This document shows positions 44,805-63,722 of a stretch of DNA of 64,000 nt, in pieces. Position 1 is the first letter of the stretch. The number at the start of each line of letters is the position of its first letter. Origin of the DNA: Bacillota bacterium. GTDB taxonomy: Bacteria > Bacillota > Clostridia > Acetivibrionales > DTU013. A model generated the notes under the pieces. That model had not been told where the DNA came from and ran no database searches. It saw nothing but the letters and a program-made list of their open reading frames with translations. The position numbers were made by a program, and so were the translations under genes. The DNA lies in NCBI GenBank assembly GCA_023409735.1, contig JAEYRB010000007.1, positions 20,376-84,375 of the forward strand, in the 5' to 3' direction.

Positions 44805-45725
44805 TTAATACTTTGCGGCTGTCTTTTTTCTATATTGAAGCGGTGTAAGCTTTACATATTTTTTAAACATTTCATTGAAACGCTGCTGATTTGAAAAGCC
44901 CACACTTAGAGCTATATCGCTTATTTTGAGTCCCGTATCGGTCAAAAGCTCCTTAGCCCTCTCAATACGTACTTTTAGTAAGTAGCTTATTGGGCTCATG
45001 CCTGTTTCTTCCTTAAATGCCCTTGTAAAATAGCTTGGGCTAAGAAAAACGAATCTTGAGATATCACCTAATGAAATATCCCTTTCAAAGTTTGTGTGAA
45101 TAAAGTTTATTGAAATATTTATAAGTTCTTTTAATTTGGGGCTTTTAGTCTTTATGCTGTTTTCCCATTCCATTTTAAGGGCGCGCGACAACAGTACAAA
45201 TAACTCCATTACAAGCAGATAATTGAGAAATTCGCTTCCCGGCTCATCACTTTCCCGTTCCTTGAGAATCCTGTTCATGAGAACAACTATCTCATTCTTG
45301 GGACTGACCTTTAGGGTAATATAAGGACCTGTTTCCTTACTACTGACAAAGTTTAAGAAATCCTCCAAAGGAATCTCAGAGTATTTCCCGTTTATCCTAT
45401 TTTCAAATTTAAAATTGAGAACAATAAATTCACAGCCTCCCTCGGATTTAACGATAAACTTATGGTACTGAAGAGGCTTGATGATTATTATGTCGTTAGG
45501 ACCAAGCGATACCGGCTGCCCGGATATTTCAAACACCGCAAGACCCCTTTTCATATAAACCAGTTCATAATTTTCATGTATGTTGGGTTCCATAGACCAT
45601 GTAATATCCTGGACCCTTTCGATTGTCTTTACTATGACAGGCAGAAAATCTGATGAATTCAAAAGGCCTGCCCAAGCCTTGGGCAGCAAATCTCCCACAA
45701 AACCACCTCGGCTTTCTTTCTCCAT
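44805..45725 (-). CDS. AraC family transcriptional regulator (cupin sensor plus double HTH)
   Basis: The N-terminal cupin-like region has HENYELVYM..G. The C-terminus reads ISLGDISRFVFLSPSYFTRAFKEETGMSPISYL...IALSVGFSNQQRFNEMFKKYVKLTPLQYRK. Confidence 0.8.
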   Translation of the reverse strand: MEKESRGGFVGDLLPKAWAGLLNSSDFLPVIVKTIERVQDITWSMEPNIHENYELVYMKRGLAVFEISGQPVSLGPNDIIIIKPLQYHKFIVKSEGGCEFIVLNFKFENRINGKYSEIPLEDFLNFVSSKETGPYITLKVSPKNEIVVLMNRILKERESDEPGSEFLNYLLVMELFVLLSRALKMEWENSIKTKSPKLKELINISINFIHTNFERDISLGDISRFVFLSPSYFTRAFKEETGMSPISYLLKVRIERAKELLTDTGLKISDIALSVGFSNQQRFNEMFKKYVKLTPLQYRKKTAAKY

Positions 45726-45919: not shown

Positions 45920-46153
45920 CTATTCCATATCATCTAGATCGATCGTATCAAGCAGCTTTTTTAGTTCCTCTACTTCTCCCTTGTTAAGTGTCACACCCTT
46001 CCCCATTTTTTCATGAGTTTCGTCCCAATCCCTGATATCCAGTTTAGGTTTCCTGTCATTCCAGCTTACAAGGTTTACCTCTTTCTTCCACCCCTTTGTT
46101 CCTTCACCGATGATTCCAATAGATTTTGTTATTTCATACTTAAGCTCTGCCAT
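45920..46153 (-). CDS. YdbC-like / PC4 (p15 coactivator fold) single-stranded nucleic-acid-binding family protein
   Basis: GWKKEVNLVSWNDRKPKLDIRDWDETHEKMGKGVTL matches the bacterial YdbC/PC4-like pattern. GGAGG lies 7 nt before the ATG at 46153. Confidence 0.6.
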   Translation of the reverse strand: MAELKYEITKSIGIIGEGTKGWKKEVNLVSWNDRKPKLDIRDWDETHEKMGKGVTLNKGEVEELKKLLDTIDLDDME

Positions 46154-46451
46154 ACACAATCCTCCAATTCAGGTTTTATTTTAATTTAGCTAAAAATTTT
46201 ACCTTTTTAATCAACCTTACCCGATTGAACTGCTTATTTGATTTTAGTTACTTCTCAATAAATGGTTAATGAACTGTCTAAGTCATAACCGTTTAAGTTT
46301 TAAATATTGCTACATTAGATATTGGATCAACAGTAGTCGTAGTTTATTTCGCATGTTCTCCTTCAACAGGTTCTTTAGGAATGTTTTATGATTTTATATT
46401 AAGTTCTCAATTTATGCAATAATGCTTCACTTACATAGGTTATGCTGTTTA

Positions 46452-47396
46452 TTATTCTTGCTCGGGAATACCTGCAAGCTCTATTTTCCCATTATATTTT
46501 ACATATGCTAAAAAAACAGCTTCCTTTTCCGTGACCTCAAATGATATGTATTGCGGTTTAACTAATTCCTTCTTTTCTTCGCGCTTGCCGTCTTCTCCTA
46601 TAATTCCTGCCACTCTAATGGCTTTAAGGACCTTTGTTTCTGTGAAGCTCATATATTCTTCCATTGCAGACTCTTTCACAGATGAATTACCGTTTGGTGT
46701 ATCTCCCGAGGGTGCCCGCCTAGACTCCAATCCTCCCGATGATTCAGAGTTAGCTGTAGTTTTTCCCGTAGATACCAATCCGACTTCAGCTATTTCAGAA
46801 GATATGGGATTTACTCCTTCCTCTCCTTTATATTGTGACAGATCTGCCGGATTGGCTGCTGCATCTCCTGCATATATTGGGCTAGCTGCTTTTCCTACAT
46901 CAGATGCCGGAATTTCTTCCGCTGCTCTGTTATTTGCATCCAATGTATATATACACCCCTGTTGCTCGCTACTATTTGGAATGCAGATCAGGTCAACAAG
47001 CTGTCCTTCTTCCAGCTGCCAGCCATTAGTCTGATCAGTTTCAAATCTTATCGAAAACAGTCTGTTACTTTTATCCGCTACTTCAATAACGTCACTTTCC
47101 CCGTTTTGAAGCTTAGCCTTCAGCATCATCTCACCAGCTTCAATTTTCATGGCGGACACTTTTGCCTCTGCCTCTTCAATGCTTCTGACAGTTCCCTGCG
47201 TCACCAGGTCTGAGGCAATTTCTCTAATCTCCAGCATATCCCTTGTTATCATATTGCCCTCATCGATACTTACTTTGGCAAATACAACTTCCTCCCTGGT
47301 TTCATAGTTGGCAGCTTTACTAATAATCATGAGCTCAATTACTAAAACAATCACAGTAATAGTAGCAGTTCCGATAATCCAACCAAGCCTTTTCAT
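46452..47396 (-). CDS. CpaB/RcpC-like Flp pilus assembly protein (SAF domain) with a long low-complexity insertion
   Basis: An N-terminal TM anchor, then a SAF-type segment (VVFAKVSIDEGNMITRDMLEIREI...GTVRSIEEAEAKVSAMKIEAGEMMLKAKL). A central A/S/G/E/P-rich stretch of about 95 aa follows. Confidence 0.65.
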   Translation of the reverse strand: MKRLGWIIGTATITVIVLVIELMIISKAANYETREEVVFAKVSIDEGNMITRDMLEIREIASDLVTQGTVRSIEEAEAKVSAMKIEAGEMMLKAKLQNGESDVIEVADKSNRLFSIRFETDQTNGWQLEEGQLVDLICIPNSSEQQGCIYTLDANNRAAEEIPASDVGKAASPIYAGDAAANPADLSQYKGEEGVNPISSEIAEVGLVSTGKTTANSESSGGLESRRAPSGDTPNGNSSVKESAMEEYMSFTETKVLKAIRVAGIIGEDGKREEKKELVKPQYISFEVTEKEAVFLAYVKYNGKIELAGIPEQE

Positions 47397-47426: not shown

Positions 47427-47954
47427 TTAGTTGTTTAGAGGTATTTCCGAGTCAACGTGCACTTTAACAATAATAGTATCCCGGCCCAGCAGCTTCAAAA
47501 CCACACCCGAGTATAGAGAAGGTTTAATAGGTATACAAATACAGCTATGCACAGACGGTCTTTCTATCAAGGTTTCATCCGGACACCTTGCAGGCAGATC
47601 CTTGCAGTAGATCTCAAGTGAATTGATTATTACCTGTCCTTCGGCGATAGAACCGTCTTTCGGCTTCAACTCCTCATCCAGTCTGAGATTATCTGAAAGC
47701 AGCTCCCTGAATAAACCAAGCATCTCCTCCCGATTGAAGCTTACTGCAACTCTTCCTAAGTTTTCTGCATTTAAAGCATTGTACACAGAAATATTAGCCA
47801 TATCCGCCGCATCCCTGATGATTTTAGCTTTTCCTGTCAATATAAACTTCTCAATCACTACGGAAAACACAGGTAGAATAACAAGCAGAACCATTGCTGC
47901 AGCTATCACTACTGCCGTGACAGCACTGCCCTTTTCGCTGCGGACATGCATCAA
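47427..47954 (-). CDS. TadE/TadG-like pseudopilin
   Basis: The N-terminus RSEKGSAVTAVVIAAAMVLLVILPVFSVV resembles the TadE signature (ERGSA.VEFAL.LPVLL). 4-nt overlap with the upstream gene. Confidence 0.55.
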   Translation of the reverse strand: MMHVRSEKGSAVTAVVIAAAMVLLVILPVFSVVIEKFILTGKAKIIRDAADMANISVYNALNAENLGRVAVSFNREEMLGLFRELLSDNLRLDEELKPKDGSIAEGQVIINSLEIYCKDLPARCPDETLIERPSVHSCICIPIKPSLYSGVVLKLLGRDTIIVKVHVDSEIPLNN

Positions 47955-48328
47955 TTAACCACCCTTCTTGATATAGCTGTCTTATCATATACCATGCGAA
48001 ATGAGGTATCTTCTCTCTTCATTGGGGAAACAAGCTTGCTGTATGTATAGACTGCCTCAACCCTAAGTGTCAGTTTTCCACCCTGAATAGCATTTTCAGT
48101 AGCAGTAACATTTATATCCGTCAATCCCAATTCCTTAAGCTTGTCACAAAGCTCCTCAGCCCTGTCTTCACTTAGTCCTCCCGCGTTTTCCATCTCAAGC
48201 ATTACTTCTCTGCAGGCCATGTCAAGATCAGCTTTTATTGAAAGAGGCAAAAAGAACTCGATGCAAAAGACAAGAATTGACACCATAAAAATCAGTGCTA
48301 TTGCGAAAACAGCAATCTTAGCCGCCAT
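47951..48328 (-). CDS. DUF4320-like small membrane-anchored Tad-locus protein
   Basis: An N-terminal TM helix followed by SIKADLDMACREVMLEMENAGGLS. The architecture and position are typical of the DUF4320 proteins of Firmicute Tad loci (from memory). Confidence 0.5.
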   Translation of the reverse strand: MAAKIAVFAIALIFMVSILVFCIEFFLPLSIKADLDMACREVMLEMENAGGLSEDRAEELCDKLKELGLTDINVTATENAIQGGKLTLRVEAVYTYSKLVSPMKREDTSFRMVYDKTAISRRVVN

Positions 48329-48339
48329 AGCTTATTCCT

Positions 48340-48645
48340 CTAGCTCACGCCTGTTTTGAAGAGACTATTTTTCACGGTAGTTGTCCACCAAGAAGACAGC
48401 CCTTCCATAATGGTCTTTGAGAAACTACTCAACTGCGGTATAACAATAAAGGCTGCAATAATAAGTGTAGCTGCAATACCTAAAATTTCATTCATACCAA
48501 ACCCATCCTGCCGGGATAACCTCACTTTTAACCTTGAACAGCACTGCTTAATATGGATTGATGCCTCACCTTTAAGCGAATAATAATGTCCTGCCTTTAG
48601 ATTTACAAAATTGATCAGCCTGTTTTTCACTCTAATCCCTCCCAT
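48340..48645 (-). CDS. Flp-type (type IVb/c) pilin candidate; true start uncertain
   Basis: ...RQDG/FGMNEILGIAATLIIAAFIVIP fits the Flp G/XXXXE(Y/I) processing motif followed by a hydrophobic helix. The mature part would be about 50 aa. The ORF has an unusually long 48-aa leader if translated from ATG 48645. In-frame GTG alternatives exist: codon 6, preceded by GGGAGGG, and the GTG of ...KVRLSRQDG. Confidence 0.55.
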   Translation of the reverse strand: MGGIRVKNRLINFVNLKAGHYYSLKGEASIHIKQCCSRLKVRLSRQDGFGMNEILGIAATLIIAAFIVIPQLSSFSKTIMEGLSSWWTTTVKNSLFKTGVS

Positions 48646-48648
48646 TTA

Positions 48649-49554
48649 TTAATTTATAAAAATCTTACCAATAGCCTCGCTCACATCGTTTATCATCGGT
48701 ACTATTATCATCACCGAGATAACAGCCACAAATACCGCAACCGCCGCCACACTTCTGTTCCTGCAGCTATCTGTTTCAGCCTGTACATAGTTAAAATACT
48801 TTTTAAACATCATATCCTCCTGCCGTGCTAATAGCTCCTTATTGTCACCTGTTTCGATGCCCTGCTTAAGAGCAAGGCAAAGCGTATCCGCCTCATGGGC
48901 GTCAAAGTTGGACCTGAATTCCTCTAAGGCCGAGTCTATATCAAGTGTAAGCTCGTATCTGGCAGCAAGCCTTATAAGTATAGCCTTCAGCTCGTAATCT
49001 TCAACCACCTCATATACCGAGCAGACCGCATCTGTAGGCTTAACGCCGGAGGAGATCTGGTTATATAAATATTTATATATTTTGTATATGTGTTTCTGAA
49101 ATCTCATATTGAAGCTGCGCCTTTTTGAGGCCAATAACAATTCCATTGATGAATTTATAAGCATCGCTGACGCCACAGGCCTGATAACATCAGGATAATT
49201 AATTATGAATGTAAGAATAAAAACGATCGGTGTAGCAGCAAACCTTACCCCAAGGTATACTAGTGCTGCATATTCACCTTTATAGCCTGCCTTCTTCACC
49301 CTACTTCTTGCTCTTATATAGATGCTGCCCTTTTCAAAGCGTCTTCCCCAGGCTGACATACCGGCAGCCGCAAGTCTTCTGCACCTAAAATAAAGCGATA
49401 AGCCGGTGCTCCTTGAGCCAAGCGCCTCTGTAACTCTTCCTGATGACGGAATATACAGAAGCCTTATGATACATATCCCTAATATTATATCAGCCGCACA
49501 TATCACCACAAAAAGCACTGTGCTTTTATTAAAAATTATTAGCATAAATTCCAT
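48649..49554 (-). CDS. TadC-like type II secretion system F-family membrane protein
   Basis: Polytopic membrane protein with one T2SSF-like helical cytoplasmic domain (LDIDSALEEFRSNFDAHEADTLCLALKQGIETGDNKELL) and a C-terminal TM. Positioned after the TadB-like gene. Confidence 0.7.
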   Translation of the reverse strand: MEFMLIIFNKSTVLFVVICAADIILGICIIRLLYIPSSGRVTEALGSRSTGLSLYFRCRRLAAAGMSAWGRRFEKGSIYIRARSRVKKAGYKGEYAALVYLGVRFAATPIVFILTFIINYPDVIRPVASAMLINSSMELLLASKRRSFNMRFQKHIYKIYKYLYNQISSGVKPTDAVCSVYEVVEDYELKAILIRLAARYELTLDIDSALEEFRSNFDAHEADTLCLALKQGIETGDNKELLARQEDMMFKKYFNYVQAETDSCRNRSVAAVAVFVAVISVMIIVPMINDVSEAIGKIFIN

Positions 49555-49571: not shown

Positions 49572-50576
49572 TCAGTATTTAAATCTGGTAATACCAATTG
49601 TGAGATAGAAGCCTAAAGCATACATACCGCAAAATATCATAAGCAGCAGCTTTCCCACCAGGGTACCCATATAAAACGCCTCAATTTTAGGCGCAGACCT
49701 GATAAACAAATAAGCTACAATAATAACGCCAAACATTACAAGGTATATGGTCATCCTATCCTTATAGGTTGAAATTCTACGCCTGTTATACTCTTCATCA
49801 ATCTTATAAAACTGTTCCTCAAGATTTGTCAGGAGTTTAATTATATCGCCTCTGTTTTTGATACTCTGCTTTACATTTATTATGAAATCTCCAAACTGAG
49901 GGTTATCTACCTTAAGCTGCAGCATGTCCAGAGCATCTGAGGTATCCATACCTCTGTTAACTTGTACAACCATATCTCTGATAAATGTGTGCAGCGGTTC
50001 ACCAATACCGGAATCCAGCGATTTTTCAAATGCATATATTATGTCTTCCTTAACTGAGCACCACCTGTTCAGTACAGAAATGTATTCAGAAAGCATTTTT
50101 CTGACAACATCTGCATTATATCTTGAAAGCAGGTCAAGGACGAATATCGGTATCAAAGAAACCACAGCGCTTATTAGCATGGATGACGGAATAAAACCAA
50201 GAATGCTGTTAATCGGCTTAAAGGATATTATAAAGATAATAAACATTATTATAATAAGAACATGAGCATTCATAAATGGTACATAGTGCCTGATATTTGA
50301 CTTCTCTATATACATTATCTCTATCTTCTCCAAAAGCTTCAGCTTCTTAAGCTTGGACAAGCGGGAAATATCCATCATTTTCAGCTTTTTATCATTGGAG
50401 GTCCAGTATTTCCTGAGCCACGAAGACAGCTGCAGGATATCCTTTTTTATATCAAGTTTTCCGGTGATGGCTAATGCAAGTGCCACATTACAGATCACCA
50501 GCAATATGGAGTTAAGTATCAGCAGCACCGTTTTCACCCTTCCCTTCCGATCAACCTTACATTGATCTTTTCTCAT
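49572..50576 (-). CDS. TadB-like type II secretion system F-family membrane protein
   Basis: TM-rich, with a T2SSF-like domain (GEPLHTFIRDMVVQVNRGMDTSDALDML...DFIINVKQSIKNRGDI). Positioned after the CpaF gene. Confidence 0.7.
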   Translation of the reverse strand: MRKDQCKVDRKGRVKTVLLILNSILLVICNVALALAITGKLDIKKDILQLSSWLRKYWTSNDKKLKMMDISRLSKLKKLKLLEKIEIMYIEKSNIRHYVPFMNAHVLIIIMFIIFIISFKPINSILGFIPSSMLISAVVSLIPIFVLDLLSRYNADVVRKMLSEYISVLNRWCSVKEDIIYAFEKSLDSGIGEPLHTFIRDMVVQVNRGMDTSDALDMLQLKVDNPQFGDFIINVKQSIKNRGDIIKLLTNLEEQFYKIDEEYNRRRISTYKDRMTIYLVMFGVIIVAYLFIRSAPKIEAFYMGTLVGKLLLMIFCGMYALGFYLTIGITRFKY

Positions 50577-50609: not shown

Positions 50610-51812
50610 TTATACTAAACTCATCTGATCTGCTTCAGAAAACAGTCTTGTATACTCAAACCTGTCTTCAGCACTGTTAAAACCGCTTACCTTCAGAACA
50701 TCCACAACTTTAAAATCCTTTAAATACAAAATATAGTTAATGCTTCTTCCCAATATAGTTTTTATAGTATTTTCACTTTCAGATATATTTGCTCCCTTGC
50801 TTAGGGTAAGAAGTCTCAAGAGTGCATCCTCAGCACTTTCAGAATGAGTCGTGGCGATACTTCTGTGACCCGAATAAGCTGCCTTAACAAATTCCCATGC
50901 CTCATCTCCTGTTATCTCTCCTACACAATAAGTATCTAGTGACATTGTTAGTCCATCTCTGACCAGGTCCTTTAATGTGACCGGCCTGCCGCCTTCATTT
51001 TGCTTCTTAAGCTTCTGCTCTATACAGTAGGGCTTGTCCGGGAATATCTCTGCATCTGACTCTGCTATGAGAACTCTCTCCATCTCAGGTAATACATTCA
51101 CAAATGCTCTGAGTAAGGTTGTCTTTCCGGCCGCTCCCTTTCCACAGAAAAGGATAGATGAATCGCTCTCAGCGAGCCTTTTTAGAAGAAGCACATGTTC
51201 GTCCTGCAGCATACCTAGCCTTTGCAGATCTTCAAGAGTATAACTATTTCTTCTATGTTTTCGTATACTGATTGCAGAGCCGGTAATATTCCTCGGTTTT
51301 ATTGAAACGTTTATTCTAAGCCTGTACTTTTCATCAGTTACCCTGCAGTGACTGTCGTTTTCATTTAGTATTCCGCCATTTCTTACGGCTACCAGCTTAC
51401 AGTAGGTATCGAAAATTTTTTCACTGCCGAAATTTACAGGTATCTTACTCCGTACTCCATGCCTCTTTATAACAAACTGATTAAATCTAGTTCCATCTAT
51501 GTCTGTAATATCATCCTCCTCAATATACCTTTGAAGCTCACCATAACCAAACATGAAGTCAAATACCTTGCGTATCAGTTCATCTCTATAAACGCCACAG
51601 TGATACTTGTGAATATCTATATCCTTTATCACTGCTATTTCTAATGCAGATTTATCACTTCGGCCTCCTGCTACATCTGCCACTAGCTCCGGCCATTCCT
51701 TAAGTATGTCCTTGGTTATGTCTGAAACCACTATATTAGTCTCCGCTTCAACCTTTTCAGCTGGGTTACCTTCCTCATAAAAAAGCGTATGATGGGATTT
51801 TACAACCGGCAT
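50610..51812 (-). CDS. CpaF/TadA family pilus assembly ATPase
   Basis: Walker A CGKGAAGKTT, Asp box, Walker B YCVGEITGDEA and His box SGHRSIATTHS. Three consecutive ATGs (51818, 51815, 51812) follow GAGGAGG; the third has the best spacing. Confidence 0.85.
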   Translation of the reverse strand: MPVVKSHHTLFYEEGNPAEKVEAETNIVVSDITKDILKEWPELVADVAGGRSDKSALEIAVIKDIDIHKYHCGVYRDELIRKVFDFMFGYGELQRYIEEDDITDIDGTRFNQFVIKRHGVRSKIPVNFGSEKIFDTYCKLVAVRNGGILNENDSHCRVTDEKYRLRINVSIKPRNITGSAISIRKHRRNSYTLEDLQRLGMLQDEHVLLLKRLAESDSSILFCGKGAAGKTTLLRAFVNVLPEMERVLIAESDAEIFPDKPYCIEQKLKKQNEGGRPVTLKDLVRDGLTMSLDTYCVGEITGDEAWEFVKAAYSGHRSIATTHSESAEDALLRLLTLSKGANISESENTIKTILGRSINYILYLKDFKVVDVLKVSGFNSAEDRFEYTRLFSEADQMSLV

Positions 51813-51825
51813 CATCATTCCTCCT

Positions 51826-53517
51826 CTACCTTGCAGCAAGCTGCCTGATCATCTTAAGGTGTCCACCTGTGCCCCTAAGTTTGTGCATCAAGCCGAGATC
51901 AGACAATATTCCGATGCCCTTGAGTACCCGATAATATTCGGCCAGCATTTCTTTTTCGATATGTAATACATAAGTATCCTTTTTGTTTCTGCATTCAGAA
52001 CGTTTACGACTAAATGATATTCTTCCTATAAAATTTCCCTGTGTCGCCTCTACAGCTTCACTGGCAGAAATGTCATTTTCCCTGTCGTATTCAAAGAAAA
52101 CGAATTTGGTCGCTGAAAGAGGCAGGTTTTGCTTCTCCTTCAAAAATGCTATATAAGAGTTAAATTCACGAAGCAACACTATATCACCCTTGATTGCTGC
52201 AATATTAATATCTGATCTAAGCAGTGCAGCAAGTGTAAAGGCATCGTATATAGATCTATTTACAAGAAGGATTGTTATATCAAATAGGCGGTAGCATTTA
52301 TCTATAAGCTTTGGGACACTATCTTCGGTATAATATTCGTAATTGTCCAAGCGATAGCTACCTGTCAATATATGCAGATTCTTTAGCTCCTTACGTGAAA
52401 CTGAAGATTGAAGCAGCAGCTCTTTAGTAAGAGAGGCTTTACCAATGGCGCTCATAACAATATCCAGTCCTGAATGACCAAGAATTTCAGTATGCATGTT
52501 TTTCGATGGATATTTTTTAACATTAAGGATAATGTCTGCCTTAGGTGCCAAAAGATCCAAGTCCGCCAGTAGCACCTCGCTATTTGTAAATTTTGCGATT
52601 AAATATGCAAGCTCGCACCCAAATTCAGCGTTATCCCAGATAGTTATCACTGCTTTTTTAACGCTCATTGCCCCTGTAAGTACAGGCGGATATTCTTTAT
52701 TTATATTGCTTTCTGAACTATCTCCATGCACATTAGCTGCCTCATAAAGAGGAGTTAATGCAGCAAGCAGCTCTGAAGCACTCTGGTAACGCTCCGATGG
52801 ATTTTCTTTTGTGCATTTGATTATTATTTGCTCAAATTCCGCTGAAAGCATTCTATCATAATATCCAACCGGCTTAAAACCATCCAACAATTCGGCAGGC
52901 TTCTTCCCTGTAACAAGATGATGCAGCGTAGCACCAAGGCTATATATGTCCGAAGCAGCACTTGTCTGTCCGGTGCCATATTGCTCCGGCGCCGCATAGC
53001 CACGTGTACCTATGTACACGGTGTCCGTATCTGATAAAGGTTTATATTCTCTCGCTATTCCAAAGTCGATAAGCTTAAGAGTGCCTCTTTCTGTAAGTAT
53101 TATATTTGAGGGCTTAATATCTCTGTAGATTATAGGATTTGGTTTAAGCGTATGAAGGTAATCCAGGGCTCTACACAACTGAACTGCCCAGTCGATAGCA
53201 AGCTCTTCCTCAATTTTACCCTCGGCTTCAAGTTTTTTATCCAAAGCTATCCCATTAATATAATCTGATATTATAAACATCTTGTCTTCAGTTTCCAGGA
53301 TATCGAACAATCTTGGAAGCGCAGGATGCTCCAGTCTTTTCAGCAGGGTGGGTTCTGCAAGAAGATCAACTCCACTTGCTCCGTCTTTATTTATCTCCTT
53401 AATAGCCCAATAGGTATCTGTATTAATATTTCTCGCAAGGTATACGGTACCCATTCCTCCACGGCCAAGTTCGCGCTCGATGATGTACCTGCCATCGAAA
53501 AAATCACCAATCTGCAT
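51826..53517 (-). CDS. Fusion protein: N-terminal Hanks-type Ser/Thr protein kinase plus C-terminal TadZ/CpaE-like (ParA/MinD-fold) domain with degenerate P-loop
   Basis: Kinase motifs: G-loop LGRGGMGTVY, AIKEI lysine, YRDIKPSNIIL catalytic loop, DFGIAR, GYAAPE. No TM segment. Residues ~285-563 follow the MinD/ParA strand-helix pattern (VITIW-DNAEFGCELAYLIA / VLLADLDLL / HILTGS / FDITILLVNRS / INIAAIKGD), but KGGxGK(T/S) is replaced by DNAEFGCE. Confidence 0.8.
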   Translation of the reverse strand: MQIGDFFDGRYIIERELGRGGMGTVYLARNINTDTYWAIKEINKDGASGVDLLAEPTLLKRLEHPALPRLFDILETEDKMFIISDYINGIALDKKLEAEGKIEEELAIDWAVQLCRALDYLHTLKPNPIIYRDIKPSNIILTERGTLKLIDFGIAREYKPLSDTDTVYIGTRGYAAPEQYGTGQTSAASDIYSLGATLHHLVTGKKPAELLDGFKPVGYYDRMLSAEFEQIIIKCTKENPSERYQSASELLAALTPLYEAANVHGDSSESNINKEYPPVLTGAMSVKKAVITIWDNAEFGCELAYLIAKFTNSEVLLADLDLLAPKADIILNVKKYPSKNMHTEILGHSGLDIVMSAIGKASLTKELLLQSSVSRKELKNLHILTGSYRLDNYEYYTEDSVPKLIDKCYRLFDITILLVNRSIYDAFTLAALLRSDINIAAIKGDIVLLREFNSYIAFLKEKQNLPLSATKFVFFEYDRENDISASEAVEATQGNFIGRISFSRKRSECRNKKDTYVLHIEKEMLAEYYRVLKGIGILSDLGLMHKLRGTGGHLKMIRQLAAR

Positions 53518-53736
53518 TCTCGCACCTCATTCAAAACAAAATACTAAATATTTGTATTATTTTTACCTTTTATGTCCCCCTCTGCGTTTTGTGTTTCCTA
53601 TTATATCATTTTATTCCATAATTTACCATACTTTTTTAAAAAATTTTCCCCTTCTTTTTTATTTGACTTTACTTATACAAATATTAGTGGAAAATCTCTT
53701 ATATAGTCACTTTTTCAATTAACCTCAGACATTTTT

Positions 53737-55881: not shown

Positions 55882-56373
55882 CTACTTTTTCTTATCTATA
55901 AAATAGGACGGAACGCTCGTTTGAATTGGTTTATATGCCAGATTAGCTCTTTTGTTCTGATTAATCTTCCTAATCTCTGCTCCAAAATGATTTAATAGAT
56001 TATTGCTTTTTTCGCCATTAGCCTTCTCTAATACAACTATGCTGTTGACGATATCCATAACTTCTGCAGTTATACTTTTGAGTTTTCCGGCACCTTCCGC
56101 AGAACTGATATCAAGCTTTGTCATGTCCAGTTCACTCAGCTTTGATACACCCAAGGCAGACTTGAGTCTGGCAAAATATATTTCAAATTCACCATCAAGC
56201 TCAATAAGCTGATCGATTTTAAGCTGTTTTTCATCAATAAGATTTTTAAGTCTATCCAATGAATCCTCTGCAATTGTATCGGTCTGAGCTTTAGTTATGG
56301 CTAATATCTCCATAAGTATATTCTTCTTGGTTAACTGAAGCTCATTCAACCTGGAAAAATATTTTTCGGTCAT
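55882..56373 (-). CDS. Flagellar-locus helical protein, FlgN/FliT-like putative export chaperone
   Basis: All-helical 163 aa, located immediately downstream of fliS (3-nt gap). No strong motif, so the call is positional. Confidence 0.45.
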   Translation of the reverse strand: MTEKYFSRLNELQLTKKNILMEILAITKAQTDTIAEDSLDRLKNLIDEKQLKIDQLIELDGEFEIYFARLKSALGVSKLSELDMTKLDISSAEGAGKLKSITAEVMDIVNSIVVLEKANGEKSNNLLNHFGAEIRKINQNKRANLAYKPIQTSVPSYFIDKKK

Positions 56374-56376
56374 TTC

Positions 56377-56781
56377 CTACTCCTCTTTGATAAGACGTGG
56401 CTGCTGTGGATGTTTTGCAAGTTTCATTGCCTGAGCCCAGGTATCTCTTAACTCCTTTGATATTCCAAGAACTTCTTCAAGTATTTGCAGATCTTTCTTA
56501 ACGTTGGCATCCACAAGCCTTCTGAAAATATATTCATATAACTGGTCAAGCCCTTCTGATACCTCATACTTCATATCTAGTGTTTTGCGAAAGTTTAGTA
56601 TAATATTCTGTGCTTTAATAATTGAGTTTGATGCCTTTTCAATACTTTTGTCATTAATACTATATTGTGCTTGCATAATAAACTTCACCAATCCATTATA
56701 CAACATTAATGTAAGTTCTTCAGGAGTTGATGTATAGATAGAATTTTGCTTATACTGGTCATATGCCTTATTTACTGCCAT
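56377..56781 (-). CDS. fliS: Flagellar export chaperone FliS
   Basis: Y.QN.I.T.TPEELTLMLY.G..KF...A is the canonical FliS N-terminus. 134 aa. Confidence 0.9.
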   Translation of the reverse strand: MAVNKAYDQYKQNSIYTSTPEELTLMLYNGLVKFIMQAQYSINDKSIEKASNSIIKAQNIILNFRKTLDMKYEVSEGLDQLYEYIFRRLVDANVKKDLQILEEVLGISKELRDTWAQAMKLAKHPQQPRLIKEE

Positions 56782-56824
56782 TAGTCATTCCTCCAAAAAG
56801 TTAATCTAAAGAGAGCTTTTCACA

Positions 56825-58735
56825 TCAGGATTGCCCGCTGAACATCGAGGTTATGTATGAACTTTGGGAATTCATTTGGTTAATATACGTTTCTAGGTTC
56901 GTAAACTTGGAATAGTAATATTGTTCTTTATTATTGAGCTTAGTGATCAGCTCCTTAATATCATCCTCATAATCGTCTATTTGATCAAACAATGTGTTTT
57001 CATACTGAGTTGTATCTCCCTCCATGCCTGCTTTTTGAAGAAGTATACCTTTTCCGTTGGTTGTCCTGATGTAATCCTCAAGTATGTCTGATATCCTGTT
57101 ACCAAGTCCCTCTGTACTGTATCGCTCTCTTCTCTGTGCAGTTGTAGTACACTCAGTATATGATAGATTTGATTTCTTTGTAAATAATTCAGCTACATTG
57201 TCAGGGTCTGATTGTATAGCTGCCTTCAGCTTGTTTTCGTCAATAATCAGCTTTCCTTTGTCGGTATATACACTTGTGGTAATCCCTATTGATGTTAGAT
57301 CCTTGGATATACCGGTTATAGAGTCCGAAAGGGCCGTTCTCATACTATACAGCATTTCCTGGAGCATTGAATCATGACGAAGAAGTCCTGTTTTGGCTTT
57401 TTCCTCCCATTTTTTGACCTCATCCTCAGAAAGCTCCTCCTTCTGTTCATCAGTAAGAGGCGCAAAATCACGATCATATTTTTCACTGATAGTAGTGTTT
57501 ATCTCATCTATAAGCTTGTTATAGTCGTCAACAAAAGCTTTTATGTTATTAAATACCGAATCTGTATCCGTTGTAAGTGAAACTGTTTCACTCTGGTTTA
57601 CAGGATCAGTATGCGCCTTGTTCAATGTATATATAGTATTGTTCACCGTAAATGAATTGGTACTTCTTGTAACAAGGACTCCGTCAATCATAGCTGAAGC
57701 GTCTTTGCCTTCTTCATAATTATTCATATTAAGTCCAAAGGTATTGATAAAATCAATATCACCCTGTGTTGTACCAAAGACGATATTGCTTCCCGCACCG
57801 GTTTGCTTAGAAGTTAGCAGGAATCTGTCCGATGTTTCATCATATCTCATGTTTACGTTAGCTGTCTTATCTGAATTGATCGTATTCATCATACTTGATA
57901 AGGATGTATCAACACTGAAAGTAAATTTTTTTGAATTGATAGTAAATGAAACATTACCATCTTCATCAAACTTAAGATCAGAGGCAAAACTACTTGCAAG
58001 ATATCCGAGCGGCCTTGCCGTGTTAAGCCTGTTTGATGCCCCAATACCAAAGCCAAGAGATGTCAAGGCACCGCTTTGATCGGCATTCGACAGGGTTATC
58101 CTTCCTGCACCTCCTGTAGCTTCAAATGACAGATTATCTGTACTCACATCAAAACTCACGGAGATCTTTCCTGCGCCGAAGGCTTTATCTACTAAATCCT
58201 GCAGGCCGGTGCCCTGCTTGTTAACAATTTCATCCGTACCGGCAGTGTAATTATCAAGAACTATTTCCTTTGTCACTCCATCTAATGTTAGTGCAATTTT
58301 TTGTCCAGATAAGCTGAAATTTAATACTTTCCCCTGCAATGCATCGGTCACACCGGCAGTACCTTTGATCTTAGCTTCAGTTGCAAGGCTAATAACTGAT
58401 ACAGTATGTGAACCTACAGCTGAATCTGCATTGCCGGATATAGTAACATAGCTGTCATTAGTAGAGGAACCCAAGAACTTCTTAAAGCTTGATTTTGAGG
58501 TAACATTACTAGCCATATTAGTAGTATTAAAATAGGACGTCTTAAATTTATTAAGCTTACTGATTATGTCTCTATATTCCTCCTGTTTCCATTCAGCCAG
58601 CTGCTTTTTCTGATAAAGCTTATTAAGTGGGACCTTTTCAGCCCTCATTAGCTGTTCTACTATAGAGTCAGTATCCAGGCCGCTTGCAAGGCCTGATAAC
58701 CTTGACATTGAAGTGCTTCTAATTCCTGTCATCAT
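56825..58735 (-). CDS. fliD: Flagellar filament capping protein FliD (HAP2)
   Basis: N-terminal SGLASGLDTDSIVEQLMRAEKVPL and the C-terminal FliD domain (...RFTNLETYINQMNSQSS). Confidence 0.9.
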   Translation of the reverse strand: MMTGIRSTSMSRLSGLASGLDTDSIVEQLMRAEKVPLNKLYQKKQLAEWKQEEYRDIISKLNKFKTSYFNTTNMASNVTSKSSFKKFLGSSTNDSYVTISGNADSAVGSHTVSVISLATEAKIKGTAGVTDALQGKVLNFSLSGQKIALTLDGVTKEIVLDNYTAGTDEIVNKQGTGLQDLVDKAFGAGKISVSFDVSTDNLSFEATGGAGRITLSNADQSGALTSLGFGIGASNRLNTARPLGYLASSFASDLKFDEDGNVSFTINSKKFTFSVDTSLSSMMNTINSDKTANVNMRYDETSDRFLLTSKQTGAGSNIVFGTTQGDIDFINTFGLNMNNYEEGKDASAMIDGVLVTRSTNSFTVNNTIYTLNKAHTDPVNQSETVSLTTDTDSVFNNIKAFVDDYNKLIDEINTTISEKYDRDFAPLTDEQKEELSEDEVKKWEEKAKTGLLRHDSMLQEMLYSMRTALSDSITGISKDLTSIGITTSVYTDKGKLIIDENKLKAAIQSDPDNVAELFTKKSNLSYTECTTTAQRRERYSTEGLGNRISDILEDYIRTTNGKGILLQKAGMEGDTTQYENTLFDQIDDYEDDIKELITKLNNKEQYYYSKFTNLETYINQMNSQSSYITSMFSGQS

Positions 58736-58742
58736 ATATCAT

Positions 58743-59147
58743 TCACCTTCTTTCATCAACTAGGATACCGGCCATTTCCCACATTTTGGCTACCATGTCC
58801 AATATTTTCTCCGGCGGTATCTCGCGTATAACTTCATCTGTTTGCGAATCAATAACCTTTATCATTATCTCTTTTGTTTCCTCATGTATTGAGTACTCGA
58901 ATTTTCTGTTAGAAATGGATAAAGCATCATTGGCACGCTCAATTGCATCAATGACGGCTTTGTCCGAAATTGACAGATTTTTCTTGTCAAATTCCGATTT
59001 CCTTATGTTATCACATGCAGTAGTATTATCTGGCTTATAACCCGGTTTTTCAGTGAAGTTCTTAGCCTGGGTTGAGGTAATATCCTGGTTCACTGATCTT
59101 ATTGCCTGCTGTCCTGTTTTAAGAGCATCCGTGCCCTCTATTCTCAT
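58743..59147 (-). CDS. flaG: Flagellar protein FlaG
   Basis: The C-terminus F.IHEETKEIMIKVID..T.EVIREIPPEKILDM is the FlaG signature. ATG at 59147 with GGAGGTG upstream. Confidence 0.8.
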   Translation of the reverse strand: MRIEGTDALKTGQQAIRSVNQDITSTQAKNFTEKPGYKPDNTTACDNIRKSEFDKKNLSISDKAVIDAIERANDALSISNRKFEYSIHEETKEIMIKVIDSQTDEVIREIPPEKILDMVAKMWEMAGILVDERR

Positions 59148-59260
59148 AAAAGCACCTCCATCCATGAATTTTCCTATATAATAAAATATCTGCCTATACT
59201 GTTGTTGTATTTTAAAGGGAGCCGAGAGCCGTACAAATCAAAGCTCACCCTTCATTATAT

Positions 59261-59287
59261 TTATCGGAATATTTTTTATTTTATTTA
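59261..59287 (-). promoter_or_regulatory. SigD (sigma-28)-type promoter for flaG-fliD-fliS
   Basis: The minus strand reads TAAA-N15-TCCGATAA, against the consensus TAAA-N15-GCCGATAT. About 115 nt upstream of the flaG start. Confidence 0.55.
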
Positions 59288-59380
59288 ATCAAATAATTTA
59301 CAAAAGTAAAAATTAGAATTCATCCTGCAGCGACTACAAGATTCTTTGCTTAATATATCATTGGTTACATTCTAACGATA

Positions 59381-59416
59381 TTGAAGAAAAGGCCGGAGGT
59401 TGTCCCTCCGGCCTTT
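59381..59416 (-). terminator. Rho-independent terminator of fliC
   Basis: AAAGGCCGGAGG-ttgtc-CCTCCGGCCTTT, a 12-bp perfect stem followed on the minus strand by TTTTCTTC. 26 nt after the fliC stop. Confidence 0.85.
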
Positions 59417-59441
59417 AAAACTGCATATTTTTGAACTACTA

Positions 59442-60836
59442 TTATTGTAACAGCTGAAGAACTCCCTGAGGCTGCTGATTTGCCTGTGCAAGCATTGCAG
59501 TAGCTGCCTGAGTGAGGATGTTGTTCTTTGTGTAGTTCATCATTTCCTTAGCCATATCAACGTCACGAATACGAGACTCAGCAGCAGTAAGGTTTTCAGA
59601 TGAAGTACCCAGGTTATTAATAGTGTGTTCGAGTCTGTTCTGGTAAGCACCGAGCTTTGAACGCTCTGCAGAAACTCTCTTAATAGCGTTATCTACAGTA
59701 GTTATAGCATCTTCAGCGCCTGCCTGGCTTGTGAGATCAAGATTATTTACTCCAAGATCTGACGAAAGCATGCTTGAAATACTGACGCTCATTGTCTGAC
59801 CTTCATTCGCGCCAATATGCATTGTAATATTATTCTTTGTTACCTGAACGCTGTCCTTTGTTCCCGCAGCAGCCTCAGCAGCAGCATCAGTAAGAGTTAC
59901 CATAAGACCAATTGAGTCTCCTGCTGTAGAGGTAAGAGTCTTTCCATTTCCTGTCGCAGCCTGACCGTTTATAGTACCTGCAACATCAACACCTATGTCA
60001 CTTACATCAGCAGCTGTTGTTAGTCCCAATAAACGTGAAGCAGAGTTAGCACCGCCATCTGCTACTGTAATGGATTCGGATGCACCATATCCGTCGGAAT
60101 TCAGTGTAATTGCATTTGTGGTCGCGTCGGCTGATGCAATAATACCAATACCTGCAGTATTTACTGCATTTACAAAATTAGCTACTGTAGCTGCAGCATC
60201 TCCAGCAACAGAATTGAAATTAATTGCAAAACCGTTTATTGATACAGTTTTTGGTGTAGAATCTATAACAGAAGCATCGGTTACTGCAGCACCTGCTATT
60301 GTTGCGCGCTCAGCTGCCGTTGTAGTTTCGATTTCATATGTCCCAGCCTGGATACCATCATTAATAGTAGTAGCTGATTCTACATTTGTGTTTGTACCAT
60401 ACACAACCTTGCTTCCTGCATCGCCGTTGAGGAGCTTCTTAGTGTTGAATTCAGTTGTATTTCCTATTCTGTCGATTTCGGATGTAAGCTGATCAATCTC
60501 CTTCTGGATCTCTGCTCTGTCATCTACTGTATTGGTATCATTTGCAGCCTGAACAGCAAGCTCTCTCATTCTTTGCAGTATGCTGTGAGTCTCACTGAGT
60601 GCGCCTTCAGCTGTCTGGATGAGTGAAATACTGTCCTGAGCATTCGTTGAAGCCTGATCAAGGCCTCTGATCTGGCCTCTCATCTTTTCACTGATTGCAA
60701 GACCTGCTGCGTTGTCGCCTGCACGGTTTATAGCAAGACCTGAAGACAACTTTTCCAGTGATTTGGATGTAGCGCCTGTATTAGCTGATAATTGACGATA
60801 AGTGTTAAGTGATGCGATATTGTGATTAATTCTCAT
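59442..60836 (-). CDS. fliC: Flagellin
   Basis: MRINHNIASLNTYRQL N-terminus and C-terminal ...TQAATAMLAQANQQPQGVLQLLQ, with an A/T/G-rich variable central domain. GGAGG lies 8 nt before the ATG at 60836 (Met20 of the track ORF). Confidence 0.9.
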   Translation of the reverse strand: MRINHNIASLNTYRQLSANTGATSKSLEKLSSGLAINRAGDNAAGLAISEKMRGQIRGLDQASTNAQDSISLIQTAEGALSETHSILQRMRELAVQAANDTNTVDDRAEIQKEIDQLTSEIDRIGNTTEFNTKKLLNGDAGSKVVYGTNTNVESATTINDGIQAGTYEIETTTAAERATIAGAAVTDASVIDSTPKTVSINGFAINFNSVAGDAAATVANFVNAVNTAGIGIIASADATTNAITLNSDGYGASESITVADGGANSASRLLGLTTAADVSDIGVDVAGTINGQAATGNGKTLTSTAGDSIGLMVTLTDAAAEAAAGTKDSVQVTKNNITMHIGANEGQTMSVSISSMLSSDLGVNNLDLTSQAGAEDAITTVDNAIKRVSAERSKLGAYQNRLEHTINNLGTSSENLTAAESRIRDVDMAKEMMNYTKNNILTQAATAMLAQANQQPQGVLQLLQ

Positions 60837-60844
60837 AATAAATA

Positions 60845-60886
60845 CCTCCATGTATTTTTTTATTTTTGGTAGAGCATCCTTGCTCT
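60845..60886 (-). promoter_or_regulatory. Two candidate CsrA binding sites in the fliC 5' leader (hairpin-loop AGGA plus SD GGAGG)
   Basis: On the minus strand, AGAGCA-AGGA-TGCTCT (60886-60871) presents AGGA in a 4-nt loop. A second GGA lies in the Shine-Dalgarno sequence (60849-60845). Confidence 0.55.
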
Positions 60887-60920
60887 CCAACATTTTTTGA
60901 ATCCTATTAAATACTTCTCC

Positions 60921-60948
60921 ACTCGGCCGATGAGGAAAAACTATTTAA
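60921..60948 (-). promoter_or_regulatory. SigD (sigma-28)-type promoter of fliC
   Basis: The minus strand reads TAAA (60948-60945), N16, then GCCGAGTG (60928-60921). About 85 nt upstream of the fliC ATG. Confidence 0.45.
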
Positions 60949-61168
60949 TTTCGTTCTCAATAAATATATCGAATTTTTTTTGATCTTACTTAACAACAAT
61001 TTATATAATTTTTATTTTTTTTAACATATGGATAGACTCTATTAAATATGCTTCTATTTAAAAACATATACTTTTATATAAAGGCAGAACTAGCAGCAGT
61101 AACAGTTCAGACTCTGCTTGATACACATATGAAATAAAACTGGCAGTAACCTATTTACTTACGAGATT

Positions 61169-61233
61169 ATCTGCCAGAAAAATATATAAATTTTTTATTT
61201 TGCTAGAGGCCTGCCCCAACTATTGACACAGAG
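61169..61233. repeat. Dispersed 65-nt intergenic repeat, copy B
   Basis: See copy A. On the minus strand, both copies lie immediately 3' of a rho-independent terminator. Confidence 0.8.
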
Positions 61234-61240
61234 ATGATAT

Positions 61241-61284
61241 AAAAAGGTGCAACTATTGGCTGAATGTTCAGCAATAATAGCACC
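61241..61284 (-). terminator. Rho-independent terminator of csrA
   Basis: A long imperfect hairpin (GGTGC...GCTGAA-ca-TTCAGC...GCACC) followed on the minus strand by TTTTT. 24 nt after the csrA stop. Confidence 0.7.
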
Positions 61285-61307
61285 TAGCAAATTACCCTAC
61301 GTCTAAT

Positions 61308-61535
61308 TCACTCAAGACTCTTCCTAAGAAGCCCTTCAATAGATACATTTCCTATTTCTGAAGCCTTTTTATTCTCCTGCTGTATTTCCAGGTATACCTC
61401 TTTTCTATGTATTGATACGCTGCGGGGAGCATTTATTCCTATCCGTACCTGGTCTCCCTGAATGTCCAGCACAGTTATCTCAATATTATCATTTATTACG
61501 ATGGCCTGATCCTTTTTTCTCGTCAGTACAAGCAC
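61308..61535 (-). CDS. csrA: Carbon storage regulator CsrA (flagellar type)
   Basis: (M)[40 protein letters not shown]. The GTG at 61535 lies 9 nt after AGGAGG; the track's GTG at 61541 is only 3 nt from the SD. Confidence 0.9.
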
Positions 61536-61986
61536 CTGCACCAGCCTCCTGTCTTCGGAGTTCTTCTAATATATAGTGTCTCACAGTGTACTTATCGGTG
61601 TCAAGGATAACTTGCACTCCTCTTTTATTGCGTATGTTGATGATTATAGGAGCCTTGAGGTTCATACTCATCCTTTCAAGCTGCTGCGGAACAACTATTA
61701 CAGAATATACTGCAACATCTTCAGCATTTTCTATAGACAGTCTTTGTACATCGTCCTCACTTAACTCGAAGTCATAATCCTTTACGATAAGAAATGGATT
61801 TGCCACAGCGAAGGCAATTTCCGGGTTATCTAATGATTGAAGCCACTTAAAAGGAGAGTTCTCCTCCGAGCTGTCAAATATCGCAAACCTATGCATTTGT
61901 TCAAAGCCAGGTAAACCGGCAGCAAATTCTATACATTTTTCTTCCGGGACATCAATTTCCCCAAAATGTTTTGTCTTAAGAAACAT
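61489..61986 (-). CDS. fliW: Flagellar assembly factor FliW
   Basis: [29 protein letters not shown]....F and NLKAPIIIN are FliW signatures. ATG at 61986 with GGAGG 8 nt upstream. The 3' end overlaps csrA by 47 nt. Confidence 0.85.
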
Positions 61987-62005
61987 TATCATTTCCTCCA
62001 CTATA

Positions 62006-62578
62006 CTAAATCAGTACATCTAATTTTCTCTCATATTTTATATCAACCGACGGATACCTACTTACATATACATCGACCCTTGCAGGTTCAAAGTCAGTTT
62101 TCAGGCGCGCAGGCGTGTACTCACCATCTACTCCGCCCATAGCGACATTTTGAGGGATCTCCCACTGTACCTCAACCTTCCCTGTAACCTTTATCTCAGG
62201 CAGTGATTTCGGTATAAAGCCCAGAACAAATTCATTTGTTTTTAGCGCATCTCTGACAGCTATATGAGCTATTGTATTACCGCCATTTTGAATTGCAGCC
62301 AGCATCTCGCCGTCATTGGCTGTTTTGCCTATATACTGCATTACCTTTTTATAACCGCGTGATGCCGCTTCCCGTGCAAATTCAGAATTGTTTTTTATAC
62401 CGGCCTCAGAGAAGCATTTGGACTGGTCTATTTTTACCTCCGGTTTCTGGGTTTCTATCCTCATCTTGTTTTGATTTTGGTGAAACCTTAAAACGGCCAT
62501 TTCACTGCTCATCCGAAGCTTGCTTGGGGTCGTTTCTATTCCCAGTTGAATATCTGTAGTTTTAATACTTAGTCCCAT
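62006..62578 (-). CDS. YviE-like flagellar-locus protein (DUF6470-type), function unknown
   Basis: 190 aa. It occupies the position between flgL and fliW held by yviE in B. subtilis. No catalytic motif. Confidence 0.55.
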   Translation of the reverse strand: MGLSIKTTDIQLGIETTPSKLRMSSEMAVLRFHQNQNKMRIETQKPEVKIDQSKCFSEAGIKNNSEFAREAASRGYKKVMQYIGKTANDGEMLAAIQNGGNTIAHIAVRDALKTNEFVLGFIPKSLPEIKVTGKVEVQWEIPQNVAMGGVDGEYTPARLKTDFEPARVDVYVSRYPSVDIKYERKLDVLI

Positions 62579-62700
62579 AATAGATCACCTTTTATGCGGG
62601 TACCTTTGTACCATTTTTCAGCTCCGAAGTACAATATATTACATTATATTTACTAATATACTGCATAACAAAATTGTTTTAAGGTTACATCACAAACGTC

Positions 62701-63630: not shown

Positions 63631-63722
63631 TTACTGATCCCTCCGTATTAAAGTCATTATCAGTTCTAACCGGTATATGATACCTTTACGAATAGATCAA
63701 GGCATTATCACAAATGCCAGGT

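Follow-up and report, generated by a model that had tools for sequence, protein, structure and literature searches.

Structure of the fusion gene

We analyzed a window of 64,000 nucleotides from a Bacillota bacterium of the Acetivibrionales lineage (contig JAEYRB010000007.1, forward-strand positions 20,376 to 84,375). On the minus strand it carries a gene for a protein of 563 amino acids (aa) in which a Hanks-type Ser/Thr kinase is joined to a domain of the ParA/MinD fold lacking the P-loop. This gene, referred to below as the fusion gene, lies directly upstream of the gene for the CpaF-type ATPase in an operon for a Tad-like pilus. The features of the protein and of the operon are listed in Table 1.

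The ATG of the fusion gene is preceded by a Shine-Dalgarno sequence, GAGGTG, read directly 6 nt to its 5′ side. The kinase half was matched by the Pfam Pkinase model with E=1.9e-50 (172 bits, cut-off 31.7). An earlier note, made from the sequence alone, had described a complete and apparently active kinase core, and all the motifs that it quoted are indeed present: LGRGGMGTVY at residues 17-26, AIKEI at 38-42 (with K40), YRDIKPSN at 131-138, DFG at 151-153 and APE at 176-178. Alignment of 46 fused orthologs revealed at least 98% conservation of K40, E55, Y131-R132-D133, K135, N138, DFG, T166, T171 and APE. Because the catalytic residues are conserved to this degree, the kinase half looks catalytically competent. 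The NCBIfam PknB/Stk1 model NF033483 also matched (8e-53), but over the kinase domain only, with a score of 180 against a full-length cut-off of 450. As the earlier note had stated, the fusion protein has no transmembrane segment (the maximum Kyte-Doolittle 19-residue mean is 1.37), and the Pfam and NCBIfam scans found no PASTA or other sensor domain in it.

The kinase is followed by a linker which varies in orthologs from 27 to 188 aa and is not conserved in sequence. The N-terminal end of the structural model of the following domain, on the linker side, has a predicted local distance difference test score (pLDDT) below 50. At the C-terminus, ortholog tails are basic (net charge +4.5 on average), and their hydrophobic moment exceeds that of internal windows (p=1e-10); sequence conservation and pLDDT of the tail are low. 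This basic amphipathic tail is a possible membrane- or partner-binding element.

Table 1. Fusion gene, parts of its product and operon genes, with positions in the window; the last row gives the receiver-type loci examined.
Feature	Position	Strand	Evidence
Fusion gene, Hanks kinase and P-loop-less MinD/TadZ-like domain, 563 aa	51826..53517 (stop codon included)	minus	Open reading frame, ATG start, translation
Ser/Thr protein kinase domain, residues 11-249	52771..53487	minus	Pfam Pkinase
Disordered linker, residues 250-287	52657..52770	minus	Variable length, no sequence conservation, pLDDT
ParA/MinD-fold pseudo-ATPase domain, residues 288-535	51913..52656	minus	AlphaFold2, Foldseek, hhalign
WDNAEFGCE motif at former Walker A/P-loop position, residues 294-302	52612..52638	minus	Model and family alignment
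Basic, partly amphipathic C-terminal tail, residues 536-563	51829..51912	minus	Ortholog tail composition
Translational-coupling junction: TAG stop, AGGAGG Shine-Dalgarno, ATGATGATG CpaF starts	51810..51828	minus	Direct reading
CpaF/TadA-type pilus ATPase, 400-402 aa	50610..51818	minus	Pfam T2SSE 6.9e-27; NCBIfam TadA family 8.3e-34; 50/51 kinase-type loci
TadB-like platform protein	49572..50576	minus	Pfam T2SSF 1.9e-6; syntenic in 42/51 loci
TadC-like platform protein	48649..49554	minus	Pfam T2SSF 5.2e-9; syntenic in 41/51 loci
Short type IV (Flp-size) prepilin, site G↓FGMNE (G-1, F+1, E+5)	48340..48630	minus	Motif; weak NCBIfam prepilin N-terminal match
Small membrane protein, 125 aa, probably TadE-like, minor pilin candidate	47951..48328	minus	DUF4320 6.7e-4, sub-threshold; syntenic in 39/51
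Operon protein, 175 aa, N-terminal hydrophobic segment, minor pilin/TadG-like candidate	47427..47954	minus	Syntenic in 39/51; no family match
CpaB/RcpC-like protein, SAF domain	46452..47396	minus	NCBIfam pilus_cpaB 2.6e-14, sub-cut-off; Pfam SAF 2.2e-4; syntenic in 36/51
AT-rich intergenic region, 219 nt, presumed operon promoter	53518..53736	minus	Sequence
Receiver-type loci examined	L002 1-17323; L065 1-21356; L066 1-19568; L067 1-18126		

The C-terminal domain has the ParA/MinD fold but no P-loop

The C-terminal half (C-domain) was modeled with AlphaFold2 from an alignment of 30 out of the 38 relatives that a homolog search had returned. The model (pLDDT 86.2, predicted template modeling score 0.85) is an alternation of beta and alpha elements. 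When it was compared with the PDB by Foldseek, 171 matches were obtained at E<=1e-3, and all 50 listed belong to the ParA/MinD class. Matched structures included MinD (6riq, E=1.5e-11), a ParA-family protein (3ea0, template modeling (TM) score 0.81), Soj, FleN, FlhG, BcsQ and McdA. MinD proteins were also the best matches when PDB sequences were searched with the profile of the C-domain family (E=0.053). Alignment of the family with E. coli MinD by hhalign gave E=1.9e-4 over MinD residues 30-246: Switch I of the C-domain, DLDLLAPKAD, was aligned to DFDIGLRNLD of MinD, and the Walker B Asp of MinD was aligned to N420 of the fusion protein, while the beta1-P-loop-alpha1 segment of MinD remained unaligned. 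D319 is conserved to at least 85% among 101 diverse family members. The beta strands of the model, VITIW (residues 290-294), VLLADLDLL (315-323), HILTGS (379-384) and FDITILLVNRS (412-422), are the very segments from which a MinD/ParA/TadZ pattern beginning near residue 285 had originally been read, and this reading is therefore borne out. Matches to ToxT at residues 370-487 (ToxT_N, E=0.0033; 3gbg, E=0.029) were rejected as chance, the region being the confidently modeled core of the MinD fold.

The same note had read DNAEFGCE at the Walker A position and had suggested that nucleotide binding was probably lost. Beta1 of the model (AVITIW, residues 289-294) leads through a loop of two residues into helix alpha1. 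A TadZ-type Walker A motif, [KR]GGxGx[ST], was found in none of the 281 family members, and the classical Walker A pattern in four, three of these being chance matches elsewhere in the protein. The sequence WDNAEFGCE is conserved throughout the family (identical in 111 of 190 matched motifs). One protein at the fringe of the family, P0178 (275 aa), has GTNGAGKS, in the region of residues 16-40, exactly at the homologous site, where the fusion protein shows a gap of 6 columns. P0178 scores above the Pfam AAA_31 and CbiA thresholds; P0176 is above that of AAA_31 from profile position 21 onward. Since P0178 keeps GTNGAGKS at the site of the gap and passes AAA_31, the C-domain is a derivative of the ParA/MinD (AAA_31-type) ATPases which has lost its P-loop by deletion of about six residues, and P0178 is a likely evolutionary intermediate. 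Judged from these alignments, canonical ATP binding and hydrolysis by the C-domain are most likely absent. The P-loop is missing family-wide, in members with a receiver-type N-terminus as well, and its loss is not coupled to the gain of the kinase. A set of acidic and polar residues is conserved at the former active site: W294, D295, N296, E302, D319, D321, D328, N420, Y424 and D425.

Receiver-type relatives and the module swap

Non-kinase N-termini found in the family resemble receiver domains. The model of one such protein, P0018 (pLDDT 86.9), consists of a (beta-alpha)5 domain, a MinD-like domain and a long basic C-terminal helix. The only top match of this model covering both domains was TadZ of E. 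rectale (3fkq; 423 columns, E=4.1e-9). In Pfam searches of 25 receiver-type relatives all matches were sub-threshold: CbiA in 14, AAA_31 in 8 and Response_reg in 5. Because the receiver-type model matches 3fkq over both domains, the family has the TadZ architecture, and the fusion protein is a variant of it with a kinase in place of the receiver module. Members of the receiver type head complete Tad-like operons and occupy there the same position as the fusion gene. The earlier proposal that a kinase has replaced a receiver-like module is supported by these sister proteins. A natural swap of this kind, with the rest of the operon unchanged, points to the N-terminal module as a regulatory input.

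All four receiver-type loci examined lie directly downstream of Gram-positive conjugation modules of the type IV secretion system class. Among the module genes are those for a coupling protein, a relaxase, TcpC/TcpE or PrgI/TrbL, a VirB4-like ATPase and a cell-wall hydrolase. Two of the four loci have a prepilin peptidase of their own. This arrangement suggests that conjugative elements of Clostridia carry a Tad-like 'mating' pilus; no description of such a pilus on conjugative elements was found in the literature searched. Three of the four loci end with an HD_5/HD-domain gene (HD-GYP-like; L065 16965-17537, L066 16456-17007, L067 17166-17723), whose product is possibly a cyclic-dinucleotide phosphodiesterase. 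No HD_5 gene is present in the kinase-type operon of the window.

The contig of L002 and L053 (JAJGRE010000001.1) is labeled as Calditrichales bacterium MX18-03 and contains Tcp-type conjugation genes, genes for SLH-domain proteins and a Clostridia-like Tad operon. The label may reflect horizontal transfer or may be a taxonomic error.

Distribution of the fusion

Re-inspection of the kinase/C-domain junction for mis-assembly had been advised in the earlier note. Independent contigs (190-200 kb) in ENA, NCBI and Logan encode the identical protein. A species-level scan with one genome per species yielded 60 loci, all from Clostridia-type metagenome-assembled genomes (MAGs) labeled as Oscillospiraceae, Hungateiclostridiaceae or Acetivibrionales; about 47 of these 60 genomes encode a kinase plus C-domain protein of 552-726 aa, with a CpaF homolog directly after it in almost all cases. 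Full-length search returned at least 120 clusters at 90% identity (E<1e-180). Their names give only 'serine/threonine protein kinase', apart from one automated JGI label, 'kinase/BcsQ'. Because the same fusion with the same CpaF neighbor recurs in many independent assemblies, mis-assembly is excluded as its source.

Exhaustive profile search of 1.84 billion representatives identified 406 proteins at E<=1e-3, of which 144 were at E<=1e-30. The C-domain family did not merge into canonical MinD/ParA space in this search and is discrete. Among the proteins in hand, 57 are fused to a kinase, 53 carry a different N-terminal domain longer than 110 aa, and 68 are C-domains only or fragments. There is also a distant clade consisting entirely of kinase-fused proteins (32 representatives), in which the P-loop is absent and the catalytic and activation-loop residues are retained; in the member checked, P0120, the next gene encodes a T2SSE ATPase. 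In a crude neighbor-joining tree kinase and receiver types are interleaved, with about 10 changes between them. Identity of the kinase and identity of the C-domain are moderately correlated (rho=0.36).

The pilus operon

The TAG stop codon of the fusion gene (51828-51826) is followed directly by AGGAGG and then by ATGATGATG at 51818-51810, i.e. three consecutive ATG codons. Counted from the final base of the stop, the CpaF start codons are 8, 11 and 14 nt away. Since the stop, the CpaF Shine-Dalgarno sequence and the starts are adjacent, translational coupling of the fusion gene to CpaF is implied, in agreement with the earlier proposal of co-translation. The spacing between the two genes is small in almost all orthologous loci.

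Downstream of CpaF, genes for two platform proteins, a short prepilin, two small proteins and a CpaB-like protein follow (Table 1). The order of genes is collinear with that in roughly 36-50 of the 51 kinase-type loci, the CpaF-TadB-TadC neighborhood that had been put forward for checking being part of it, and is likewise kept in the distant kinase clade. The prepilin motif G↓FG(M/L)NE(L/I)LGIAAAL is conserved between loci. No prepilin peptidase gene was found in the window.

Upstream of the fusion gene there is a gap of 219 nt, in which an operon promoter presumably lies. An extended -10-like element, TGATATAAT, is present in the gap at 53608-53600 (minus strand); it has no good -35 and was not listed by the consensus scan. 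The promoter/terminator consensus scan itself performed at chance, with 29 predictions against a shuffled expectation of 30.5. The fusion gene is taken as the first of the operon because of this gap and because a divergently transcribed hydrolase gene lies upstream in many orthologous loci. This part of the earlier interpretation is well supported, but the evidence is indirect.

Genomic surroundings

A late flagellar gene block is located directly upstream, at 55882-64000 (minus strand), with genes for two flagellins, DUF6470, FliW, CsrA, FlaG, FliD, FliS and FlgN. The FliD-FliS-FlgN genes, accompanied by the divergent hydrolase gene and frequently by a radical-SAM gene, are present upstream in about 39 of the 51 kinase-type loci, whereas this flank was found in none of 12 receiver-type loci. 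Kinase-type copies are on the chromosome even where the flagellar flank is missing, as was seen for three loci; L056-L058 and L068 represent such other chromosomal contexts.

After the operon there is a gene for an AraC-family regulator with cupin and HTH_18 domains (44805-45725, minus strand). In orthologous loci its product shows 72-85% identity as compared with about 40-78% for the pilus proteins. It could be the transcriptional regulator of the operon or a target of the kinase. Between the CpaB-like gene and the AraC-family gene lies a gene for a 77-79 aa PC4-type protein, similar to single-stranded DNA-binding transcriptional coactivators (45920-46159, minus strand).

Further away, at 29766-33314 (minus strand), a gene for cyanophycin synthetase (880 aa) is adjacent to one for a cyanophycinase-like Peptidase_S51, and a LexA gene is close by; these genes are normal chromosomal content and have no relation to the operon. 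The remaining content of the window is housekeeping.

Role of the fusion protein

On balance we favor the explanation that the fusion protein is the component holding the TadZ/CpaE position in the Tad-like (type IVc) pilus machine of monoderm Clostridia (Acetivibrionales/Hungateiclostridiaceae-like), that it docks to the machine and that its kinase gates the pilus. We infer docking to CpaF, an active kinase, substrates for it and a physiological output along the following lines. The pseudo-MinD domain would dock, independently of nucleotide, at the platform of CpaF and TadB/TadC; the parallel is CpaE, which rings the CpaF hexamer in Caulobacter. Docking would gather kinase domains around the motor, at the places usually held by receiver domains. 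Clustering is a known route to trans-autophosphorylation in PknB-type Hanks kinases, and in the fusion protein this could occur at the conserved activation-loop residues T166 and T171. The activated kinase would then phosphorylate itself and/or components of the machine and in this way gate assembly or activity of the pilus; such gating may also coordinate the pilus with the neighboring flagellar system. The fusion would thereby wire phospho-signaling directly into the pilus machine.

The geometry of this proposal is taken from Caulobacter, where in situ data place six CpaE dimers in a ring around the CpaF hexamer; CpaE dimerizes in an ATP-dependent manner via its deviant Walker A motif, REC-REC (receiver domain) contacts join the dimers, and a C-terminal amphipathic helix lies on the membrane (PMC13170226). 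The tail of fused orthologs is compatible with binding of a membrane or a partner.

Several observations weigh against this explanation. Residues 275-563 matched no Pfam, NCBIfam or PDB sequence model, those for CpaE/TadZ (AAA_31, CpaE, TadZ_N) included. An ATP-sandwich dimer needs the P-loop; without it no canonical dimer of this kind is expected, and the analogy with the CpaE ring may fail in detail. When kinase-type and receiver-type loci were compared for Ser/Thr specific to the kinase type, CpaF, TadB, TadC, the CpaB-like protein and the two small proteins yielded a single column, in CpaF, at which the protein of the window has Ile, and the C-domain yielded none. No substrate can be named because this signature is missing from operon partners and C-domain alike. 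Neither a PP2C/PPM phosphatase nor an FHA protein is encoded in the window. Conserved polar residues by the former nucleotide site (E302, D319, D425) could mean that another ligand is bound there. Finally, the sources of the top 120 full-length matches are all metagenomes or MAGs, with no cultured host among them.

Some of these points lead to a structural explanation, which we regard as unlikely: the kinase would be mainly a stand-in for the receiver in dimer-dimer contacts, e.g. through a back-to-back N-lobe arrangement, its catalysis being limited to autophosphorylation or dispensable, and there would be no substrate in the machine. Back-to-back N-lobe dimers are known for PknB-type kinases. 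In a protein which has lost ATP-sandwich dimerization together with the P-loop, another oligomerization module would be useful, and the missing substrate signature in operon partners and the absence of a nearby phosphatase or FHA partner fit as well. REC domains provide exactly such dimer-dimer contacts in the Caulobacter model (PMC13170226). However, in the 46 orthologs conservation of K40, E55, D133, N138, D151 and the activation-loop threonines is at least 98%, and the distant kinase clade keeps these residues too. Purely structural pseudokinases usually lose catalytic residues.

There is also a small chance that the kinase signals outside the machine, to regulators of flagella or adhesion such as the downstream AraC-type protein. 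In that case the pseudo-MinD domain would do no more than hold the kinase at the base of the assembled pilus or activate it there, and the kinase would report an output of the pilus (surface sensing) instead of acting as its input. The frequent FliD-FliS-FlgN neighborhood (about 39 of 51 kinase-type loci), the AraC-family gene, which exceeds the operon proteins in identity, and the lack of a substrate signature inside the operon are in accord with this. Flagellar adjacency is nevertheless not universal, L056-L058 and L068 being elsewhere on the chromosome, and the tight translational coupling to CpaF suggests stoichiometric co-assembly. Outward signaling and gating of the machine are, besides, not mutually exclusive.

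It is improbable that the pocket of the C-domain has been turned over to another ligand (a non-canonical nucleotide, a second messenger or a phospho-peptide) which allosterically regulates the kinase. The acidic and polar residues conserved at the former active site speak for such a role, and the HD_5 gene at the end of receiver-type operons hints at a link with cyclic nucleotides; but the phosphate-binding loop is gone, Asn stands in place of the Walker B Asp, and the HD_5 gene is missing from the kinase-type operon of the window. The idea of an anti-phage defense kinase (PD-T4-6 or MADS-like) residing by chance beside pilus genes, or of an assembly or annotation artifact, is hardly credible and was rejected: the PADLOC PD-T4-6 and mad6 models match with E down to 1e-62, but these matches are confined to the generic kinase domain (residues 1-280), no defense model matches the C-domain or CpaF, synteny with Tad genes is strict in about 50 genomes and the clusters, at least 120, come from independent assemblies, and the neighboring genes are of housekeeping and flagellar type and do not form a defense island.

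Returning to gating of the pilus by a docked kinase, a bolder version of it can be put forward only tentatively, and as a whole we consider it rather doubtful. A ring of Hanks kinases, tethered around CpaF by the nucleotide-independent pseudo-MinD scaffold, would be an assembly-triggered phospho-switch gating extension or retraction of a Gram-positive Tad pilus, and it would have originated from the pilus module of a conjugative element domesticated to the chromosome beside flagellar genes. If this is true, it would be the first case of a eukaryotic-type kinase built into a type IV filament machine as one of its structural subunits. On the evolutionary side, the distribution links Tad-like pili of conjugative elements with chromosomal adhesion or motility loci in cellulolytic-type Clostridia.

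Comparison with known systems

The fusion bears on the on/off control of Tad pili and on the role of TadZ/CpaE at the motor, chiefly in Gram-positive bacteria with their minimal machine. The earlier note knew of no characterized example of the present architecture, and we likewise found no description of a kinase-TadZ fusion or of a P-loop-less TadZ family in the searchable literature, although one may exist outside it. The kinase-headed P-loop-less TadZ is widespread and conserved, and is annotated as a plain kinase: a domain family of about 400 representatives is absent from domain libraries, and hundreds of genes are named only 'serine/threonine protein kinase'.

The kinase domain is closest to those of PknB/PrkC/Stk1, with all catalytic motifs and the activation-loop threonines present. 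Unlike these proteins, the fusion protein has no transmembrane helix, PASTA repeats or extracellular sensor, and its C-terminal partner is a pseudo-MinD domain. Control of pilus-type or secretion machines by Hanks kinases has precedents. ArnC and ArnD of archaea regulate the archaellum, a type IV filament system, but their targets are transcriptional regulators, ArnA/ArnB, and neither kinase is joined to a part of the machine. In type VI secretion systems (T6SS) threonine phosphorylation controls the nanomachine, through PpkA/Fha1/PppA and in the case of Agrobacterium TssL. Sets of kinase, phosphatase and FHA proteins have been proposed to control variants of type VII secretion systems (T7SS) (PMC11217815). 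As in the T6SS and T7SS cases, a Hanks kinase is here genetically tied to a membrane nanomachine and is presumed to gate its assembly. The T6SS/T7SS sets comprise a separate membrane kinase, FHA readers and a PPM phosphatase, whereas the kinase described here is soluble and fused to a component of the machine, with no FHA or PPM gene nearby.

With MinD/ParA ATPases (AAA_31, CbiA; FleN/FlhG, BcsQ, Soj) the C-domain shares the fold (TM scores of 0.7-0.8) and the DxD of Switch I, and fringe members of its family pass AAA_31, one of them with a P-loop. It differs in belonging to a discrete family of about 400 representatives without P-loop, signature lysine and Walker B Asp. Rewiring of TadZ is known in other forms, for example in TadZA of Bdellovibrio, a TadZ-TadA fusion without the receiver domain (bioRxiv 10.64898/2026.07.08.737194). 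There, too, the receiver is lost and its role passed to another module or partner; however, TadZA keeps a Walker A-like motif, is fused to the ATPase and has no kinase.

The closest parallel is TadZ/CpaE itself, as known from E. rectale (3fkq) and from CpaE of C. crescentus. Like TadZ/CpaE, the fusion protein is encoded in a Tad locus immediately before the TadA/CpaF ATPase and has a C-terminal domain of the ParA/MinD fold with a basic tail, and its relatives show the same two-domain plan of receiver-like and MinD-like parts. It departs from TadZ/CpaE in that the atypical N-terminal receiver is exchanged for an active-looking Hanks kinase, in that the K/RGGxGxS/T motif, which binds ATP for TadZ dimerization, is deleted and the Walker B Asp is Asn, and in that Pfam and NCBIfam CpaE/AAA_31 models do not detect it. 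The fusion protein is thus probably TadZ-like in its working, yet not to be filed as a canonical member of TadZ. Loss of the P-loop throughout its family suggests that a MinD-like scaffold can work without ATP-driven dimerization, which bears on the model of the CpaE-CpaF ring.

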